From Methanothrix sp. (GTDB lineage Archaea > Halobacteriota > Methanosarcinia > Methanotrichales > Methanotrichaceae): a DNA stretch of 64,000 nt. Below are positions 12,673 to 20,001 of the stretch, one piece after another. The notes beneath the pieces were generated by a model. The model was given only the letters and a program-made list of their open reading frames with translations. It was not told the origin of the DNA and did not search any database. The DNA is taken from NCBI GenBank assembly GCA_963682135.1, contig OY821645.1, forward strand, positions 192,001-256,000, in the 5' to 3' direction. Every line of letters begins with the position of its first letter. The first letter of the stretch is position 1. Made by a program: the position numbers and the translations under genes.

Positions 12673-14016
12673 TCAAGCAAGGTAGAGCTTTTGCAGCTTC
12701 TCGCAAACCCTCTCTACCTGAGCCACGGCGGTTCCGATATACCGGTGCGGATCAAGCAAGGCATCTATATCGTTGGCACTCAGGTGGCGCAAGACTGTCT
12801 CGTTCTCCAAAAGGACCTCTGCCAGCTCCCTCTTCTGCTCAAACGCAGTCATAGAACTCTGGCGCATGATCTCATGTGCCTGCTGGCGGCCCACGCCTTT
12901 CTTGGCCAGCTCCACCATCACGTTCTCGGCCATATTCAGTCCGTGCAGCATAATCAAATTCCGCTCGATATTCTCAGGCCGCAGCCGCATCCGGCTGAGC
13001 GTGCGCGTGGCCAGAGTGATAAGGTGGTCGGTGAAGATGAAGGCTTCCGGAAAAACGATGCGCTCGCAGCTACTATTGGTAAGATCGCGCTCATCCCAGA
13101 GGGGAATGTTCTCAAAGGCAGGCAGGATTTGTGCTCGCACGATTCTGGACAGGCCGCAGATCTGTTCCGACTTAATCGGATTTCTCTTGTGAGGCATGGT
13201 CGAGGAGCCAACCTGTTTTTTGCCGAACCCCTCTTCTACTTCAGCGATCTCTGTGCGCTGCAAAGTGCGCATCTCCACGAAAATCTTGTCCAGGGTGGCA
13301 GACACGAGCGCCATCCAGCAGACCATCTCAGCATGTCTATCACGCTGCACGACCTGATTGGAGACATCTACCTCGTTAAGACCGAGGTGCAACATGACGC
13401 GTGCCTGAATCTCCATTCCATTAAGCCCGTAAGCGGCCTGAGTGCCTACTGCACCACTCATCTTGCCAACCGCAGCGCGGGGCCGCATCTGTGCCAATCG
13501 TTCGATATGGCGCCCGATTTCTGAGGCCCAGATGGCGAATCGCAGGCCATAGGTGGTGGGCACAGCGATCTGGCCGTGCGTTCTGCCGGCGCAGACCAGG
13601 GCTTTATTCTTCATGGCCAGATCGAGCAGTAGCGCCAGGAGATCTTTCAATTTAGGCTCCAGTACATCCAGAGAAGCCTTGATCTGTAGGCCTGTGGCCG
13701 TATCCAGGATGTCGTTGGAGGTGGCGCCCAGGTGAATCCACTCCCCAAATTTCGGAGCGCACTCCGCCATGGCCAGGACGGTGGCCATCATGTCGTGGCC
13801 GATCTCGTCCTCAATCTGCTTGGCCCTTTCCGGAAGCGTCGACTTTGCAGCAGCGGCAATCTCCGCAGCTGCACCCTGGGGAATCATGCCCAGCTCTTCT
13901 TCGGCCTGAGAAAGGGCGGCTTCTACGCGAAATAGACAGCGCAGCCGATAGTCCTCTTCCCAGATATCCTTCATCTCTTTGGTGCCGTATCTAAATTCAA
14001 TAGGGTGAATAGACAT
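12673..14016 (-). CDS. purB: adenylosuccinate lyase
   Basis: HLGATSND, GRTHGQ and GSSTMPHKRNP motifs. Confidence 0.95.
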   Translation of the reverse strand: MSIHPIEFRYGTKEMKDIWEEDYRLRCLFRVEAALSQAEEELGMIPQGAAAEIAAAAKSTLPERAKQIEDEIGHDMMATVLAMAECAPKFGEWIHLGATSNDILDTATGLQIKASLDVLEPKLKDLLALLLDLAMKNKALVCAGRTHGQIAVPTTYGLRFAIWASEIGRHIERLAQMRPRAAVGKMSGAVGTQAAYGLNGMEIQARVMLHLGLNEVDVSNQVVQRDRHAEMVCWMALVSATLDKIFVEMRTLQRTEIAEVEEGFGKKQVGSSTMPHKRNPIKSEQICGLSRIVRAQILPAFENIPLWDERDLTNSSCERIVFPEAFIFTDHLITLATRTLSRMRLRPENIERNLIMLHGLNMAENVMVELAKKGVGRQQAHEIMRQSSMTAFEQKRELAEVLLENETVLRHLSANDIDALLDPHRYIGTAVAQVERVCEKLQKLYLA

Positions 14017-14213
14017 GTTGGGGTGAATAGTGCGGGGGGTTGATGGAACTTTTGGTTGCGCCTTCAAAGGCGGATGAAGAGACTGCAGGAGAATTCATTC
14101 TTCACTATTCCTCAATCGTATTTCTTCTTATTATTCCTGACAGATGCTGCAAAAAAATAATAAAGTATATGAAACAGTAAATCAATCAAACAATGGGTGA
14201 TGAATTGCCAAGG

Positions 14214-14540
14214 ATGAAATCTTTTGCAAGAGGCATAATCGTATTCATAACGGTCATGCTCTCTCTGGGGTCTATTGCGATCGGTGCGAGCACTGATAAG
14301 GGCGTAAGCCCTGACCAGAATGTGAAAGCCTCGTTTTCCGGGACGGTTCACTCAATTGGCGCAAGCCATGGCAGTGGCTTTTTCAGCGGTCAGATTGTGG
14401 CAATCGCCTTGAATCCACGGCCCGAGCCGCCGATATACAGGATCAGTGTGAACGTCGGCAAAGGCATTTTCAGCGGCCAGATTGTGTACGGGGCCATTAA
14501 TCCTCAGCCGGAGCCTCCTGGAGCAGGGACCAAACCTTAG
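14214..14540 (+). CDS. small secreted protein with two LNPQPEPP-type repeats
   Basis: Signal peptide; GxGxFSGQIVxxA(L/I)NPxPEPP occurs twice. Confidence 0.7.
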   Translation: MKSFARGIIVFITVMLSLGSIAIGASTDKGVSPDQNVKASFSGTVHSIGASHGSGFFSGQIVAIALNPRPEPPIYRISVNVGKGIFSGQIVYGAINPQPEPPGAGTKP

Positions 14541-14727
14541 AAACGATATTGAGAGTGCACCTCGCAAAGACACAAATGACAAACTATAATTTTTTTCTCG
14601 AATTGATTTAATCAATATTAAGGAAAAGAACCGATACATTCAAATTATAATTAATATATAATCGACTAAAAATATAATAAATTATTAATAGTTAAAGCTC
14701 AATAAGATTAAACGAAAGGAAGAGAGG

Positions 14728-15789
14728 ATGCTGATGTTTGCGCCGGAAAGAAGAAGCTTGATTTTGACATTTTTATTGGCATTTATAATCGTGATGGTAA
14801 GTCCTTCAAACAGTTCGATTTATCCATTCGGCAGCAAAGTCTTGCCAGGTGACCTGGATATCGGCAGACCCCTTTTCCGTCTTCCCGCAGAGACCACCAT
14901 TGCTTATTGGGATATTGGAACTCCGGGTTATGATGAAAGCGACCCGGTCTATCTGCACATCGGGCATTCTGCCAGCGGCACGACCAACGCCAACGATGTG
15001 AGACTGACTTTTATTGATAATGTATCTCCCGGATCGAAGGTGACATTTCAGGATTTCGACATGAATAAGCCTCTAAAGCAGCTTTATTCGATAATCAGCT
15101 TCCTAGATATTCATGGCAGTCGCGCATATGATCTCGATGATCCTGTTTACCTGCACCATATCGACTGCATGGACCATTCCGATCATCCTGACGATATTTG
15201 CGTTGAAGATTCTGAAAATCCTGCCGATATGATGACAGGCTTTAGTGAGCGCCTTCCATACCGTGGAAGAGAGGTCTCTTCACCGGGATTGGGATTCGCC
15301 CAGTTTACAGATAATTATAAATTGTTCATTTCAGATAAAATCCTCGATAAGAAACCAAGGAAAGTCGGCGAAATGCGGGGACTGGCCATTGAAATGGTTC
15401 ACGGCCTGAAGGCCAACTATTATCATGTTCTAGGAACCTGGCTTATCAAGATTCAAATCCCTAAGGATGATGAATCTTCTGGCAGAGGATGGGAAGATCT
15501 TTCTGATCAGTTTATCCAAACCAATGATATCCGATTAAGCTGCATGGGAAATCTGATAGCTGGGACAAAAGTCACGAATTTTGATGAGGATCAGAATAAA
15601 ATACTGGCTTGGCCACCTCTGGCAAGCTTACTCGGACCTGTCATAGATACCGTAAAGCTGGGCTTCTTCGATGTAAACGGCAATGGAGTTTACGACTACG
15701 AAGACGACGTATACTTGAATGTGCCTTCTGGTCTGTCCAAGGGTGTGGTCACGGCAAATAATGTGAGGCTCTCCGGGCCAATCCTGTAA
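14728..15789 (+). CDS. secreted Asp-rich repeat protein
   Basis: Signal peptide; three YDxxD(P/D)VYL and N(D/N)(V/I)RL repeats; DVNGNG Ca-loop-like motif. Confidence 0.7.
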   Translation: MLMFAPERRSLILTFLLAFIIVMVSPSNSSIYPFGSKVLPGDLDIGRPLFRLPAETTIAYWDIGTPGYDESDPVYLHIGHSASGTTNANDVRLTFIDNVSPGSKVTFQDFDMNKPLKQLYSIISFLDIHGSRAYDLDDPVYLHHIDCMDHSDHPDDICVEDSENPADMMTGFSERLPYRGREVSSPGLGFAQFTDNYKLFISDKILDKKPRKVGEMRGLAIEMVHGLKANYYHVLGTWLIKIQIPKDDESSGRGWEDLSDQFIQTNDIRLSCMGNLIAGTKVTNFDEDQNKILAWPPLASLLGPVIDTVKLGFFDVNGNGVYDYEDDVYLNVPSGLSKGVVTANNVRLSGPIL

Positions 15790-15896
15790 GTTAACGGGAT
15801 ATACTTCTCTTTTTGATTCGGCGAGGTTAAGCTGATTTTGGAATTATGGTGAAGCGGTAACGCTTCAGACCTTTTTTCTATTTGAATTTAAAATCA

Positions 15897-16616
15897 TCAG
15901 TTCTCCTCATAAATCGGCTTTTCCGGCACCAGGTAGATCGTCCAGAAGACCAGCGCGGTTACCAGTGCTTTAACGATGATATTGGTCCAGACCATCTGTT
16001 GCAAGCTCTCCACTCCCAAAACCCCGGCAAAAGCGATGATGGGAAACATCAGACTGTCCACGGGAATGGAGATGGAGTTGGAGGCGAATACTCTCGTCCA
16101 CTGCGGCCATTTTTCTCTGCCGCTCCGTGTCCAGATCTGGTAGACCTTGGTGTCGATCAGCTCGGCGACCAACGCCGTGAGGATGGATGCCAGCACGATC
16201 CTCATTTGCAGGGAAAAGAGAAATTCCCAGGCAACCTGGCCTCCGGCATTTGCCCAATCCGTCTGTGCCGGCAGCAGGACCACCAGTTGAAAATATAGAG
16301 CAGCAAGAAGGTTGACTGCTGCCGACAGCCAGATGGTGGTGATTGCCGCCTTCTGGCCGAGCTGCTTGTGTATGAGGTCGCGCCAGGTGAAGGTTAATGA
16401 GTAAATGAAGCCCGCGTCCATTACCAGGCCGCCGAAGTAGGTGACCTTGGTGGCAGCGATGTTTCCTGCCAGGGAGAAGAAGAGGTAAAGGCCGGATAAG
16501 ATTACGGCAGCCTGAGTCCTATCAATCTTCAATTTGCAGCCAGCAATCCGGTTGTTATCGGATTTCTGCGTTTTCTGGCCAACACATCCACTTTGGTCCT
16601 CTATCCTCATCGGCAT
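15897..16616 (-). CDS. queuosine precursor transporter (YhhQ/QPTR/VUT family)
   Basis: GNIAATK, DAGFIYSLTFTWRDL, RIVLASILTALVAELID and RVFASNSISIPVDSLMF motifs. Confidence 0.85.
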   Translation of the reverse strand: MPMRIEDQSGCVGQKTQKSDNNRIAGCKLKIDRTQAAVILSGLYLFFSLAGNIAATKVTYFGGLVMDAGFIYSLTFTWRDLIHKQLGQKAAITTIWLSAAVNLLAALYFQLVVLLPAQTDWANAGGQVAWEFLFSLQMRIVLASILTALVAELIDTKVYQIWTRSGREKWPQWTRVFASNSISIPVDSLMFPIIAFAGVLGVESLQQMVWTNIIVKALVTALVFWTIYLVPEKPIYEEN

Positions 16617-16617
16617 C

Positions 16618-17910
16618 CTAAATCGTTCTCAGCCATCGTTCTTTCATTTCCGCAAACGTACCCGTTCGTATGCTTTCTCTGATCTCTTCCATGAAGCTGA
16701 GTATAAAATGTAGATTATGAAGCGTGGCCAGCCGGAAGTAGGACAGCTCTCGTGAGACATAGAGATGGCGAAGGTAAGCTCGCGAGTAGGTGGCGCAGGT
16801 CGAACAGGTGCAATTGGAGTCGATTGGCGAGCCGTCCTCTTTGAATTTCGCCGATTTGATATTAATGTGGAACTTATTGTCCTGTGATCCACCTGCTTGA
16901 GGCGAGAGCAAGAGGCTTCCTCGCCTGGCGATTCTGGTGGGAGAGACGCAGTCAAAGGTATCGATTCCTCGGGCCACGCATTCAAATATATCGTCGATCT
17001 CGCCTATGCCCAGGAGGTGTCGTGGCCGGTCGTCATCCAATCTGGGAACAGTCCAGTCCAGGACCTGATGCATGTCTTGCTTGCTGTTCCCCAGAGAGCC
17101 CCCAATGGCAATGCCGTCAAAAGGCTGGGCAGAGATGGCCTGTGTGCTTTCCTGCCTCAAATCCTCAAACCACCCGCCCTGTATTATGCCATAGAGAGCC
17201 TGATCTTTATCATGATATGAAATGGACTCCTGCGCCCAATCATGGGTTCTTTGCATTGCCTTCTTGGTGTAATCGTAGTCTGAGAGAGGAGAAGTGCATT
17301 CGTCAAATGCCATGATGATATCAGACCCGAGGTTAGATTGAATCTTCATCGACTTTTCTGCATTTAAAAAATGCCAGGCTCCGTCGGCAAGGGACTTGAA
17401 AGAGATGCCCTCATCGGTGATCTTAGTCAAATTCTCCTTCTTGGCCACCTTATGCTTTGCTTTCTCGCGATCAACGGATCTTATGCAATTGTCATCATAT
17501 TTTTTCCGGTAGTCTTTATAAATCTCGGCATGATCACTTGATGCCATTTCTTCCGGGAAGATATTTCCGATTTTGCTGATGTTATGCTCTCTGGCAAAGC
17601 CTAAGGAAAATGCCTGAAATCCGCCGGAATCGGTGAACGTGGGCCGGTCAAATCCCATGAACCGGTGCAGTCCGCCTAGCCTCTTTATCAGCTCGTCGCC
17701 CGGCGACAAATGAAGATGGTAGGTATTGGCAAGGGTACACTCTGCGCCTAAACTGAGCAGGTCATCGGAGCCCAAAGCTCTTACGCTGCCCATTGTTGCC
17801 ACCGGGACCAGGTAGGGTGTCTGTATATCTCCCCGCCTGGTTTTTATCAGACCCAGTCTTGCTGAAGATTGCTTATCCTGCTTTAATATCTCAAAAGATA
17901 TCGCGCCCAT
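16618..17910 (-). CDS. tgt: bacterial-type tRNA-guanine(34) transglycosylase
   Basis: LANTYHL, TDSGGFQ, AFDEC, GIIQGG, GGSLG, HLLGIG, FDC and Zn site CTCSTC...H; no C-terminal PUA extension. Confidence 0.92.
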   Translation of the reverse strand: MGAISFEILKQDKQSSARLGLIKTRRGDIQTPYLVPVATMGSVRALGSDDLLSLGAECTLANTYHLHLSPGDELIKRLGGLHRFMGFDRPTFTDSGGFQAFSLGFAREHNISKIGNIFPEEMASSDHAEIYKDYRKKYDDNCIRSVDREKAKHKVAKKENLTKITDEGISFKSLADGAWHFLNAEKSMKIQSNLGSDIIMAFDECTSPLSDYDYTKKAMQRTHDWAQESISYHDKDQALYGIIQGGWFEDLRQESTQAISAQPFDGIAIGGSLGNSKQDMHQVLDWTVPRLDDDRPRHLLGIGEIDDIFECVARGIDTFDCVSPTRIARRGSLLLSPQAGGSQDNKFHINIKSAKFKEDGSPIDSNCTCSTCATYSRAYLRHLYVSRELSYFRLATLHNLHFILSFMEEIRESIRTGTFAEMKERWLRTI

Positions 17911-18108
17911 ATCCGATTACCTGAATGAAGCCATTATTTCCCAAATCCCGCCACATGAAAATTGCCCAATCTTGCTCTCATGCCTAGTTTCCCTTTGCAG
18001 TCAGCCGGCGGAAAAAGCTTTTGCATGAATAACGTATGAATGGAGTAGGCTACTCTATAAAATTGTGTATCCGAAATGAAAAAGTTTAAATGTTGTCGAG
18101 GATTGAAG

Positions 18109-18602
18109 ATGAGCGTGCATAGCGGCGGAATTCTCCTATTCAGGTTTAGAGCAAACAAGCTGGAAGTGCTGCTAGTCCATCCAGGTGGCCCTTTTTGGTC
18201 AGGGAAAGATGAGGGTGCCTGGTCGATACCCAAAGGCGTTTTTAGAGATCATGAGAGCCCACTGGACGCTGCGAAAAGGGAATTTAGAGAGGAGACGGGC
18301 TATGAAGTTGCAGGGCAGTTCACAAATCTTGGCACGATCCGGCAGCCCAGCAAAAAGATTGTGCATGTGTGGGCAAATCAATCTGATTTAGATGCCTCTC
18401 TGGCCAAGAGCAATAAATTTAGCATGGAATGGCCGAGAAAATCCGAATCATGAGAGAATTTCCCGAGGTCGACAAAGCCGAATGGTTCGAGGCTGGGAAA
18501 GCCAGAAAAAAAATCCTGAAAGGGCAGGCCGGTTTTATTGATAGACTCCTGAAGGCAGTCAATTATGATCTAAAAAAAGAAGCCATTACAGAGCCTTCTT
18601 GA
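18109..18602 (+). pseudogene. NUDIX hydrolase, frameshifted
   Basis: HPGGPFW and AAKREFREETG motifs; MEWPRKS[fs ~18445]IMREFPEVDKAEWF. Confidence 0.8.
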
Positions 18603-19284
18603 CCATTTCCACCAACTCCTTCTGTATTGCGCTCCTGCGATCTCCTCCACAGACGATGCCGCGCACGCCGATGATGTCCGGCTGCAACCTTCCCAGAAGC
18701 TCCAGATGGGCGAAGTTGATGCTTCCGGCAATTGCCACCTCTAGACCGGCGGCATGGCCCAGATCGATAAAGTCTCTTAGATCCTGCTCGCTCATGAAAT
18801 CAAAGGTAGGCTTTCCGTCTTTGACGGCTGTGTCTACCATTACAAGGTCTGCGCCGGCTTTGGCAGCAGCCGCGGGCAGGAGTTGGGGAGAGATGGATCC
18901 AACTCGGGCGTAGTCAGAGTAGGCTGATGCAACCACCTTCTTGCCGGCATCGTAGTCCTTGACGGCTCGTACGATACCCACCAGCATCTCTTCCGCTTGG
19001 GCTGGAGTCTTTACGCCTAAGAGGCCCGCCTTTACGTACTCGGCACCGGAGACCGCCGCACCTAGAGCCGCCAGGCTCGCGGTGCCCGGCTTGAATTCCA
19101 GGTCGCCGATTGTGGCGGAAACCGGCACCCTGCCTTGGGCCAGGTCTGCCACAGCCCGGATAGCCCAGGGAAAGTTCGCGCCAAGCGATCCTTCTTTGGG
19201 ATTTTTAACGTCTATTATGTCTGCACCGCCGGCCAGAGCCGCTCGTGCTTCATCAATATTCATGGGGCTAACCAACAATCTCAT
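18586..19284 (-). CDS. mfnB: (5-formylfuran-3-yl)methyl phosphate synthase
   Basis: MRLLVSP, DIIDVKNPKEGSLGA, SATIGD and MVDTAVKDG motifs. Confidence 0.92.
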   Translation of the reverse strand: MRLLVSPMNIDEARAALAGGADIIDVKNPKEGSLGANFPWAIRAVADLAQGRVPVSATIGDLEFKPGTASLAALGAAVSGAEYVKAGLLGVKTPAQAEEMLVGIVRAVKDYDAGKKVVASAYSDYARVGSISPQLLPAAAAKAGADLVMVDTAVKDGKPTFDFMSEQDLRDFIDLGHAAGLEVAIAGSINFAHLELLGRLQPDIIGVRGIVCGGDRRSAIQKELVEMVKKAL

Positions 19285-19311
19285 ATTCATCCAATCCCGA
19301 AAGGAGCAATC

Positions 19312-20001
19312 GTGCGATGCATCTTCGTCCTCGATATACTTAATGGTGCTGTTGTCCATGCCGTGCGCGGAGAGAGGAGTCATTATGAGCCTATTGCCGG
19401 CTTTTCTAGAATCGTGTCCACATCCGAGCCGCTGGGCATTTTGCATGAGCTTCGCCCCAGAGAGGTTTACGTCGCCGACCTTAACCTGCTGATGGGTCGA
19501 GGCGATAATTTGGCGGTCATAAGGCAGATTTCGTCTCTGACAAAGACCATGGCAGATACGGGGATTTCCAGGGCCAGCGATCTGGATCGGCTGCCTTCAT
19601 CCGTATCTACGGTACTGGGTACGGAAACCGCCTCGCTGCAGCTCATGCAAGCGGCTGCAAGCAAATACGGGATAATAGTAAGCATTGATATGAAGAAGAG
19701 GAAGGTATTGGCCCGCGATCCCCGGCTAGCCGGGCAGACGCCCTTGCAACTCTTGAAGAGTTTAAACGACCTGAACTTGGAAGGAGTTATCCTTCTAGAG
19801 CTGGATAGGGTGGGCACTTCTGCAGGACTTGATATACCGTTTCTGGAGGAAGCTGGGACAGCTGCCGAGCATCCACTCATACTGGGAGGAGGCGTAAAGG
19901 GGGAGGAAGATCTGTCGGCTTTGGAGGAGATGGGCTTTTCAGGAGCATTGCTGGCAACGGCACTGCACAATGGCCGAATACCAGTGGCGCGAGTGCAGTA
20001 A
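19312..20001 (+). CDS. HisA/HisF-related TIM-barrel protein (C1-cofactor associated)
   Basis: GTG after AAGGAG; VLDILNGAVVHAVRGER, YVADL and ILGGGV motifs. Confidence 0.85.
   Translation: MRCIFVLDILNGAVVHAVRGERSHYEPIAGFSRIVSTSEPLGILHELRPREVYVADLNLLMGRGDNLAVIRQISSLTKTMADTGISRASDLDRLPSSVSTVLGTETASLQLMQAAASKYGIIVSIDMKKRKVLARDPRLAGQTPLQLLKSLNDLNLEGVILLELDRVGTSAGLDIPFLEEAGTAAEHPLILGGGVKGEEDLSALEEMGFSGALLATALHNGRIPVARVQ

Follow-up and report, generated by a model that had tools for sequence, protein, structure and literature searches.

Textbooks and reviews assign queuosine to Bacteria and Eukarya, and archaeosine to the Archaea (PMC5372724; so too in the sections of PMC8204110 drawn on here). What, then, would a methanogen do with a bacterial-type tRNA-guanine(34) transglycosylase (TGT) whose gene is followed at once by that of a putative queuosine-precursor transporter (QPTR, or YhhQ)? 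We asked this of the gene pair tgt-yhhQ in a 64,000-nucleotide stretch of Methanothrix sp. DNA (contig OY821645.1 of assembly GCA_963682135.1, positions 192,001 to 256,000; the window, below, is this whole stretch), for which an earlier note had proposed that the archaeon scavenges queuine from bacteria and places queuosine (Q) in its GUN-anticodon tRNAs. We found that a complete genome of Methanothrix type keeps an archaeosine gene set together with a conserved bacterial-type TGT joined to an importer, and that searches of it returned no enzymes for maturing the inserted base. We put at roughly three in four the probability that tRNA position 34 receives a 7-deazaguanine taken up from outside; that this base is queuine seems to us close to an even bet, if anything slightly less.

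The window TGT scored 467.8 bits against the TIGR00430 equivalog model (cut-off 306.75; residues 6-427 covered) and 433 bits against PF01702. Pfam shows the TGT domain alone, extending to residue 429 of 430, and the enzyme lacks a PUA tail, as the earlier note had said. It shares with the archaeosine enzyme arcTGT (TgtA) a superfamily and the chemistry of exchanging a base for a 7-deazaguanine, but it is neither an arcTGT nor a DpdA, the two identities that the note had regarded as fatal to its proposal: it reached 127.8 bits on TIGR00432 (cut-off 350) and has no C-terminal extension or C-terminal domains, the organism's own TgtA being a separate gene, and it reached 32.3 bits on NF041059 (cut-off 200), with no dpd genes nearby. 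The motifs reported for it were all present, DSGGFQ starting at residue 94, AFDECT at 201, GGSLG at 270, HLLGIG at 298 and CTCSTC, the zinc motif completed by H398, at 367. In an alignment with the TGT of Z. mobilis, to which it is about 38% identical, D94, F98, D203, C205, Q244 and D306 correspond to D102, Y106, D156, C158, Q203 and D280, and the intact zinc site C367/C369/C372/H398 corresponds to C318/C320/C323/H349, in the residue numbering of that enzyme. Catalytic residues and those contacting the deazaguanine core are retained. An AlphaFold2 model (mean predicted local distance difference test score, pLDDT, 91.7; predicted template-modelling score 0.90) had the Z. mobilis TGT as its top Foldseek match, with a target template-modelling (TM) score of 0.94 and a root-mean-square deviation of 1.6-1.7 Å, and target TM scores of 0.93-0.95 for the Z. 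mobilis and T. maritima enzymes taken together. The protein is accordingly predicted by this model to have the bacterial TGT fold, a TIM barrel with a zinc subdomain and no PUA domain; a search of the ESM Atlas with it returned nothing beyond generic TGT clusters.

Where the window TGT departs from the E. coli and Z. mobilis enzymes, with which it shares the fold (TM 0.94), the catalytic Asp pair, the zinc site and the family models, is in the pocket that receives the 7-substituent and in an insert after the Asp102 strand. Instead of GGL[AS]VGE and YLMGVG it reads GG-SLG-N and HLLGIG, so it does not have the canonical preQ1 pocket: L231-A232-V233 is replaced by S-L, Glu235 by Asn, Tyr258 by His and Met260 by Leu, and the Cys158 equivalent, C205, is conserved. 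By both HMMER and MAFFT alignment one residue of GGLAVGE is missing from the loop, as is any counterpart of Glu235. The missing residue makes a position-by-position match ambiguous (HMMER gives both registers, MAFFT deletes Leu231), and equating Gly274 with position 233 would be one reading of an ambiguous alignment. The change from GGLAVGE is not a plain Gly-for-Val233 swap. The shortened wall could enlarge the pocket. A published motif rule for queuine-type TGTs is GG[LS][AS]G (PMC11570991, cited throughout, like PMC11130926, for the sections drawn on here); read ungapped, GGSLG agrees with it at 4 of 5 positions, the Leu breaking position 4.

The insert had been overlooked. About 56 residues (105-160) are added relative to the E. 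coli and Z. mobilis TGTs, and the HMMER alignment to the latter splits there. The insert has 56 amino acids in the window TGT and 39-84 across the genus, against 1 in E. coli; its length is nearly constant at 26-32 in other Methanotrichaceae genera and in metagenome-assembled genomes (MAGs) labelled ANME-1, and it is 28-33 in Archaeoglobaceae. By alignment, then, it appears to be enlarged in this genus (the window and loci L004-L013). The region is modelled with low confidence (pLDDT 48-79).

The neighbouring gene product matched PF02592 (Vut_1) with 112.1 bits (cut-off 27.2) and TIGR00697, the queuosine precursor transporter model, with 76.7 bits (cut-off 50.95), and it is the sole Vut_1 gene of the genome. 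With both TIGR00430 and TIGR00697 exceeded, the coupling of a bacterial-type TGT to a QPTR described in the earlier note is borne out; the two open reading frames (ORFs) lie where they had been placed on the minus strand, 1 nucleotide apart. Such spacing fits a single transcript and coupled translation, which the pair would probably have. YhhQ of E. coli is a preQ0 transporter, and preQ0 salvage has been suggested for archaeal homologues (PMC5372724). The window YhhQ would likewise carry a queuosine-type precursor, presumably inward.

The genome itself, a single 3.04-Mb contig that is 99.87% complete, shows which 7-deazaguanine genes accompany the pair. Searching it for a separate arcTGT and for queA, queG and queH, as the earlier note had advised, we found the first and not the others. 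The arcTGT lies elsewhere (595 bits; G000:C1:831985-833502, L002:1426-2943), as do ArcS (598 bits, with a PUA domain) and QueC (232 bits), so archaeosine synthesis is independent of the window genes. That arcTGT has 505 amino acids, and its match to the TgtA model extends no further than residue 452, the PUA-type match being on ArcS. Profile searches of the complete genome found no QueA, QueH or QueF, and for QueG they gave only Fe-S matches of 64 and 42 bits (cut-off 200; two archaeal control genomes matched too, and only six bacterial-sized counts stood above the cut-off). The genome thus differs from the canonical preQ1 pathway, in that QueA, QueG and QueF are missing, and has the gene content of the Chlamydia type, with the transporter present and QueA, QueG/QueH and QueF not found. 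Potential substrates are available: U33-G34-U35 is found in each of the four GUN tRNA genes (His, Asp, Tyr and Asn).

A TGT above the TIGR00430 cut-off is encoded in 74/105 Methanotrichaceae genomes (76/105 at E<=1e-40), including 54/58 other genomes of the genus, and in 11/16 genera of the family; one genus, represented by 16 genomes, has it in none. In all nine fetched loci from other species of the genus yhhQ directly follows tgt (9/9), which makes chance an unlikely source of the pairing, and the same holds for 6/8 loci from other genera of the family. A search with the window YhhQ found the linked type (54-95% identity) in 70/76 TGT-positive and 0/29 TGT-negative genomes of the family; 19 of these 29 have only the other, canonical Vut_1 type (24-30% identity) and 10 have no Vut_1 at all. 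These counts include close kin, which are not independent, and are to be read as a pattern, not as a statistic. For gene pairs with a synonymous divergence (dS) below 1, the ratio of nonsynonymous to synonymous change (dN/dS) was 0.09-0.13 for tgt and 0.14-0.17 for yhhQ. Both genes are under strong purifying selection, and the pair is old, retained, and lost together across the family.

Genus g15 lacks the usual partner. Its three genomes all carry the TGT (3/3) and none the linked YhhQ type (0/3); in the two neighbourhoods compared (G050:C35:12409-14578; L042, G052:C17) a different Vut_1 type, of about 25% identity, adjoins tgt, and in one of the two a 28-residue remnant of the old YhhQ type lies between these genes. 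Within the window's genus, the TGT is fragmented or a short remnant in three genomes (G017:C2:23204-24525, G015:C43:10380-11622 and G020:C1:95584-95874), the last of which, 93% complete, retains just 95 residues of the TGT and has neither YhhQ type, which looks like loss under way. We considered and rejected a recent transfer of tgt, given its native composition and its spread over 11/16 genera of the family.

Even sampling of the phylum (401 genomes) gave 64 genomes above the TGT cut-off and one with a fragment. These 65 fall into two sets. Set A, of 58 genomes including the window's own (families f1, f7, f14 and f33), has HLLGIG, with QueA in 0/58 and Vut_1 in 58/58; set B, of 7 genomes (f4, f5 and f8), has GGL[SC]IGE and YLMGVG, no insert, an adjacent QueA in 7/7 and Vut_1 in 0/7. 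Organism labels, taken from exact-match clusters, in set A include Archaeoglobus fulgidus, A. sulfaticallidus and others for f7, and Methanophagales ANME-1, 'Methanomicrobia archaeon' and 'Bathyarchaeia archaeon' for f14; those in set B are Ca. Methanoperedens, ANME-2 and Methanocellales (L026-L032). A pattern search, compared with the coordinates of the TGT matches, placed HLLGIG inside the TGT gene in 57/57 other set A genomes, and the 30 set A sequences of our motif table all have the loop GG-SLG-[NK]SK and an insert of 26-84 residues. Among the sampled Archaeoglobaceae that bear the TGT, QPTR is present in 37/37, and in 15/37 the Vut_1 gene is no more than 2.5 kb away from tgt. QueH was found in all three set B genomes tested (3/3). 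QueF was not found in the set B genomes searched (0/7, the transporter being absent from the same seven), in f1 (0/11 genomes, the window's included) or in f14 (0/9). Many genomes of the phylum hold both Vut_1 types. The bacterial-type TGTs of these archaea therefore split cleanly into a canonical, QueA-linked type and an HLLGIG, QPTR-linked type, a division newly described here. The earlier view of the locus as an oddity of a methanogen has the host right and is too narrow, the type occurring in 58/401 genomes of the phylum and beyond it.

How far beyond was seen from a FastTree phylogeny of 164 sequences, among them 127 of 150 representatives (340-520 residues long) of clusters at 50% identity. 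In it the HLLG TGTs group as one clade, which has 75 leaves and an SH-like support of 0.966. The window enzyme belongs to this distinct clade of bacterial-type TGTs. In a tree of 91 sequences Methanotrichaceae are sister to one representative (0.98) and then to Archaeoglobaceae with f33 (0.93), and the canonical TGTs found in set B lie in another part of the tree, with bacterial enzymes of the ordinary kind. The TGTs labelled ANME-1 fall inside Methanotrichaceae, as a group with support of 0.99 at nesting nodes of only 0.52-0.63. Three such loci (L034-L036; f14, ANME-1/Methanophagales labels) carry tgt-yhhQ pairs 64-67% identical to the window pair, and the nesting of these pairs suggests transfer between these archaea. 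Around the archaeal HLLG group stand an Aenigmatarchaeota MAG, a Thermoplasmatales MAG, Bipolaricaulota and many Patescibacteria; a further HLLG subclade holds Bdellovibrionales, Micavibrio, Paracaedibacteraceae, a Rickettsia-labelled MAG and Dictyostelium. QueA follows the same division outside the phylum, being present in 2/27 HLLG-type and 20/23 canonical-type genomes, a count of 50 named genomes that leaves out 30 further named loci of 80 and in which many HLLG holders are small, incomplete MAGs. The HLLG holders include DPANN, Patescibacteria, predatory and intracellular bacteria and Dictyostelium, that is, lifestyles of living on other cells.

Three eukaryotic sequences with HLLG and GG-SLG (P0260, P0152 and P0184) were also found: DDB_G0275613 of Dictyostelium discoideum, a hypothetical protein, a transcript of Euglena gracilis that is extended far at the N-terminus, and an MMETSP protist transcript; none of the three is annotated as QTRT1 or QTRT2. 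One representative, P0138, of 542 residues, is interrupted at 238-340 by a DUF559 (endonuclease-like) domain, which looks like the insertion of a domain or a mobile element into the TGT.

How might the pair work? QPTR would import a 7-deazaguanine base beyond the cell's own synthetic capacity, and the co-translated HLLGIG-type TGT would exchange it for G34 of tRNA-Asp, -Asn, -His and -Tyr, after which the base would undergo no further enzymatic maturation. With a separate archaeosine set and no QueA, QueF, QueG or QueH, import of a base that needs no maturation is the simplest reading. The likeliest base is queuine that bacteria nearby release; its insertion would yield Q34 in one step, as happens in Chlamydia and in eukaryotes. 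Towards queuine lean the rebuilt loop, the division by QueA, and the predators, endosymbionts, episymbionts and bacterivorous amoeba among the holders. Organisms with tgt and QPTR but without QueA, QueG or QueH are predicted to be queuine salvagers (PMC11570991, PMC11130926), and in C. trachomatis, the tested case, TGT and QPTR use queuine (PMC11570991, PMC11130926). The window pair resembles that system in having TGT and QPTR as the only genes of the Q pathway, in a non-canonical loop and in a paired function. It differs in being archaeal, in having the genes adjacent and probably coupled, in the 26-84-residue insert of its clade, and in a loop that is shorter, lacks Glu235 and breaks GG[LS][AS]G at position 4 (a difference drawn from the published rule, not from a Chlamydia sequence). 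The earlier proposal of queuine scavenging and Q-modified GUN tRNAs thus stands as to a bacterial-type TGT with a QPTR and no maturation genes, and not as to the base, for which queuine, preQ1 and preQ0 are all candidates; the tRNA target and the direction of transport, too, are read from sequence and gene content. More tentatively still, and somewhat under even odds in our judgement, the HLLGIG/GG-SLG TGTs may be a third specificity class that, with QPTR, installs queuine or another final-form 7-deazaguanine at G34.

Several points weigh against queuine, or against import as such. The loop is neither GGLAVGE nor GG[LS][AS]G, being shorter, with Leu for Ala/Ser and without Glu235, and the bacterial identity of Cys158 is kept. 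To our knowledge there is no report of Q in archaeal tRNA, and a 1991 nucleoside survey that included A. fulgidus reportedly lists none. The cell makes preQ0 itself, QueC having been found, and canonical bacterial TGTs accept preQ0. In the literature that we searched, no member of the HLLGIG clade with an assayed substrate was found. The queuosine hydrolase family Qng1/DUF2419 had no match in the window's genome, a result that is uninformative, for 0/14 control genomes matched as well. Two published observations also count on this side. Bartonella henselae, with a bacterial-type TGT and QPTR only, uses preQ1 and has trace preQ1 in its tRNA (PMC11570991), and archaeal COG1738 proteins have been read as preQ0 importers that serve archaeosine (PMC5372724).

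The B. henselae case is a model for an alternative in which QPTR imports bacterial preQ1, TGT inserts it at G34 and the tRNA stays preQ1-modified. The two organisms have in common a genome whose only gene for the modification itself is tgt, a QPTR and no maturation enzymes (PMC11570991), and preQ1 would need to come from outside, QueF being absent from the window genome, in agreement with the linked importer; the Cys158 of bacterial type would suit it too. We nevertheless think it unlikely. Bartonella has the canonical GGLAVG loop and prefers preQ1 (PMC11570991), whereas the loop of the HLLGIG clade is rebuilt and Glu235 lost; the archaea of the phylum that do have QueA keep the canonical loop (7/7, with QueH in 3/3 tested); and the change of the pocket across the clade, together with the loss of QueA, suggests a different base. 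Somewhat less likely again is that position 34 receives preQ0, made with the cell's own QueC or imported by YhhQ, or that the transporter mainly feeds the archaeosine pathway. QueC, arcTGT and ArcS are all encoded, the transported base of E. coli YhhQ and the proposed archaeal salvage are both preQ0 (PMC5372724), and the genome has no Vut_1 gene other than the window yhhQ. Where preQ0 is produced in the cell, however, an importer tied to tgt is not needed, and the linked YhhQ type is absent from the 29 TGT-less genomes of the family although archaeosine is still needed there, 19 of them having only the canonical Vut_1 type at 24-30% identity. That many genomes hold both types suggests different substrates. 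As for another target, whether RNA or DNA as for DpdA, or a relic that has been retained, the 56-residue insert and the altered pocket are uncharacterised, and a search for RNA runs located no expression datasets for the organism; yet the DpdA score is 32 bits against a cut-off of 200 with no dpd genes close by, selection on tgt and yhhQ is strongly purifying, the two are lost together and do not decay singly, and the catalytic and zinc residues are intact, and we regard this explanation as very improbable. Insertion of an imported base at position 34 remains the reading that we prefer.

Parts of this picture were known. Public records annotate Methanothrix genes as Tgt, and bacterial-type TGTs in archaea were noted in 2021: Castelle et al., the one relevant study found by our literature search on such TGTs in archaea and DPANN, described full or partial bacterial queuosine pathways (QueA, QueH-like, Tgt) in 34 archaeal genomes, of DPANN and some Methanosarcinales (PMC8204110, in the sections drawn on here). 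Those sets share with the window a bacterial-type TGT in archaea, and some come from the same class as its organism (PMC8204110, same sections). The Ca. Methanoperedens, ANME-2 and Methanocellales sets that we examined are of the opposite type, having a canonical loop, an adjacent QueA, QueH and no QPTR. Closer is a 'putative queuine tRNA-ribosyltransferase' of A. fulgidus (AAB89762.1), of the same clade, with 52-54% identity, GG-SLG-K, HLLGIG and an insert of 28-33 residues; it differs in coming from a thermophile of another archaeal class and in a tgt-linked QPTR of another subtype, 25-29% identical. It carries this annotation only, our literature search having turned up no functional study, and the search found nothing joining Methanothrix or Methanosaeta with queuosine or queuine. 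The gene-neighbour survey in the sections of PMC11130926 drawn on here is framed as 'among bacteria' only. What is new here is the partition into QueA-linked and QPTR-linked TGTs, together with the co-loss data within Methanotrichaceae.

The features of the locus are collected in Table 1. The pair is flanked by purB, an ORF without a family, a divergent NUDIX gene and the methanofuran gene mfnB. The host is a methanogen: mfnB adjoins the locus, and the NCBI names agree, the proteins 83-84% identical to the window TGT being 'tRNA guanosine(34) transglycosylase Tgt' of Methanothrix sp. or Methanotrichaceae. The G+C contents of tgt and yhhQ (0.49 and 0.54, against 0.50 for the genome) are native. 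AT-rich, TATA-like stretches are present by inspection in the region between tgt and the NUDIX gene, and an Rfam search that included preQ1 riboswitches gave zero matches at E<=1 across 14000-19500. Convergent with yhhQ is a 353-residue ORF (14728-15789, plus strand) with a hydrophobic N-terminus and no Pfam or NCBIfam match.

Table 1. Features of the tgt-yhhQ locus, in window positions
Feature	Position	Strand	Description and basis
tgt	16618-17910	minus	430 aa; bacterial-type tRNA-guanine(34) transglycosylase of the 'HLLGIG' clade (ORF, TIGR00430, PF01702)
yhhQ/QPTR	15897-16616	minus	239 aa; putative queuosine-precursor transporter (Vut_1), divergent tgt-linked subtype
Gap between tgt stop (TAG) and yhhQ ATG	16617	minus	One base; junction reads ...TAG G ATG...
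TGT insert	17431-17598	minus	Residues ~105-160; K/E/D-rich, clade-specific, after the DSGGFQAFSLG strand
Pocket loop G270-G-S-L-G-N-S276	17083-17103	minus	Predicted to line the 7-substituent pocket (alignments)
Intergenic region, presumed promoter	17911-18075	.	165 bp, shared with the divergent NUDIX gene

Should the HLLGIG/GG-SLG TGTs be a third specificity class of the kind suggested above, Q34 tRNAs would be expected in Methanothrix, Archaeoglobus, ANME-1 and many DPANN and Patescibacteria, queuosine would occur in all three domains, and key acetoclastic methanogens would rely on nearby bacteria for a micronutrient of translation. If the imported base is queuine, there would be Q34 in archaea; an acetoclastic methanogen that abounds in digesters and sediments would be auxotrophic for a bacterial micronutrient; and a function would be gained for a large clade of TGTs with a rebuilt pocket, whose members come from archaea, Patescibacteria, bacteria that are predatory or intracellular, and some protists.

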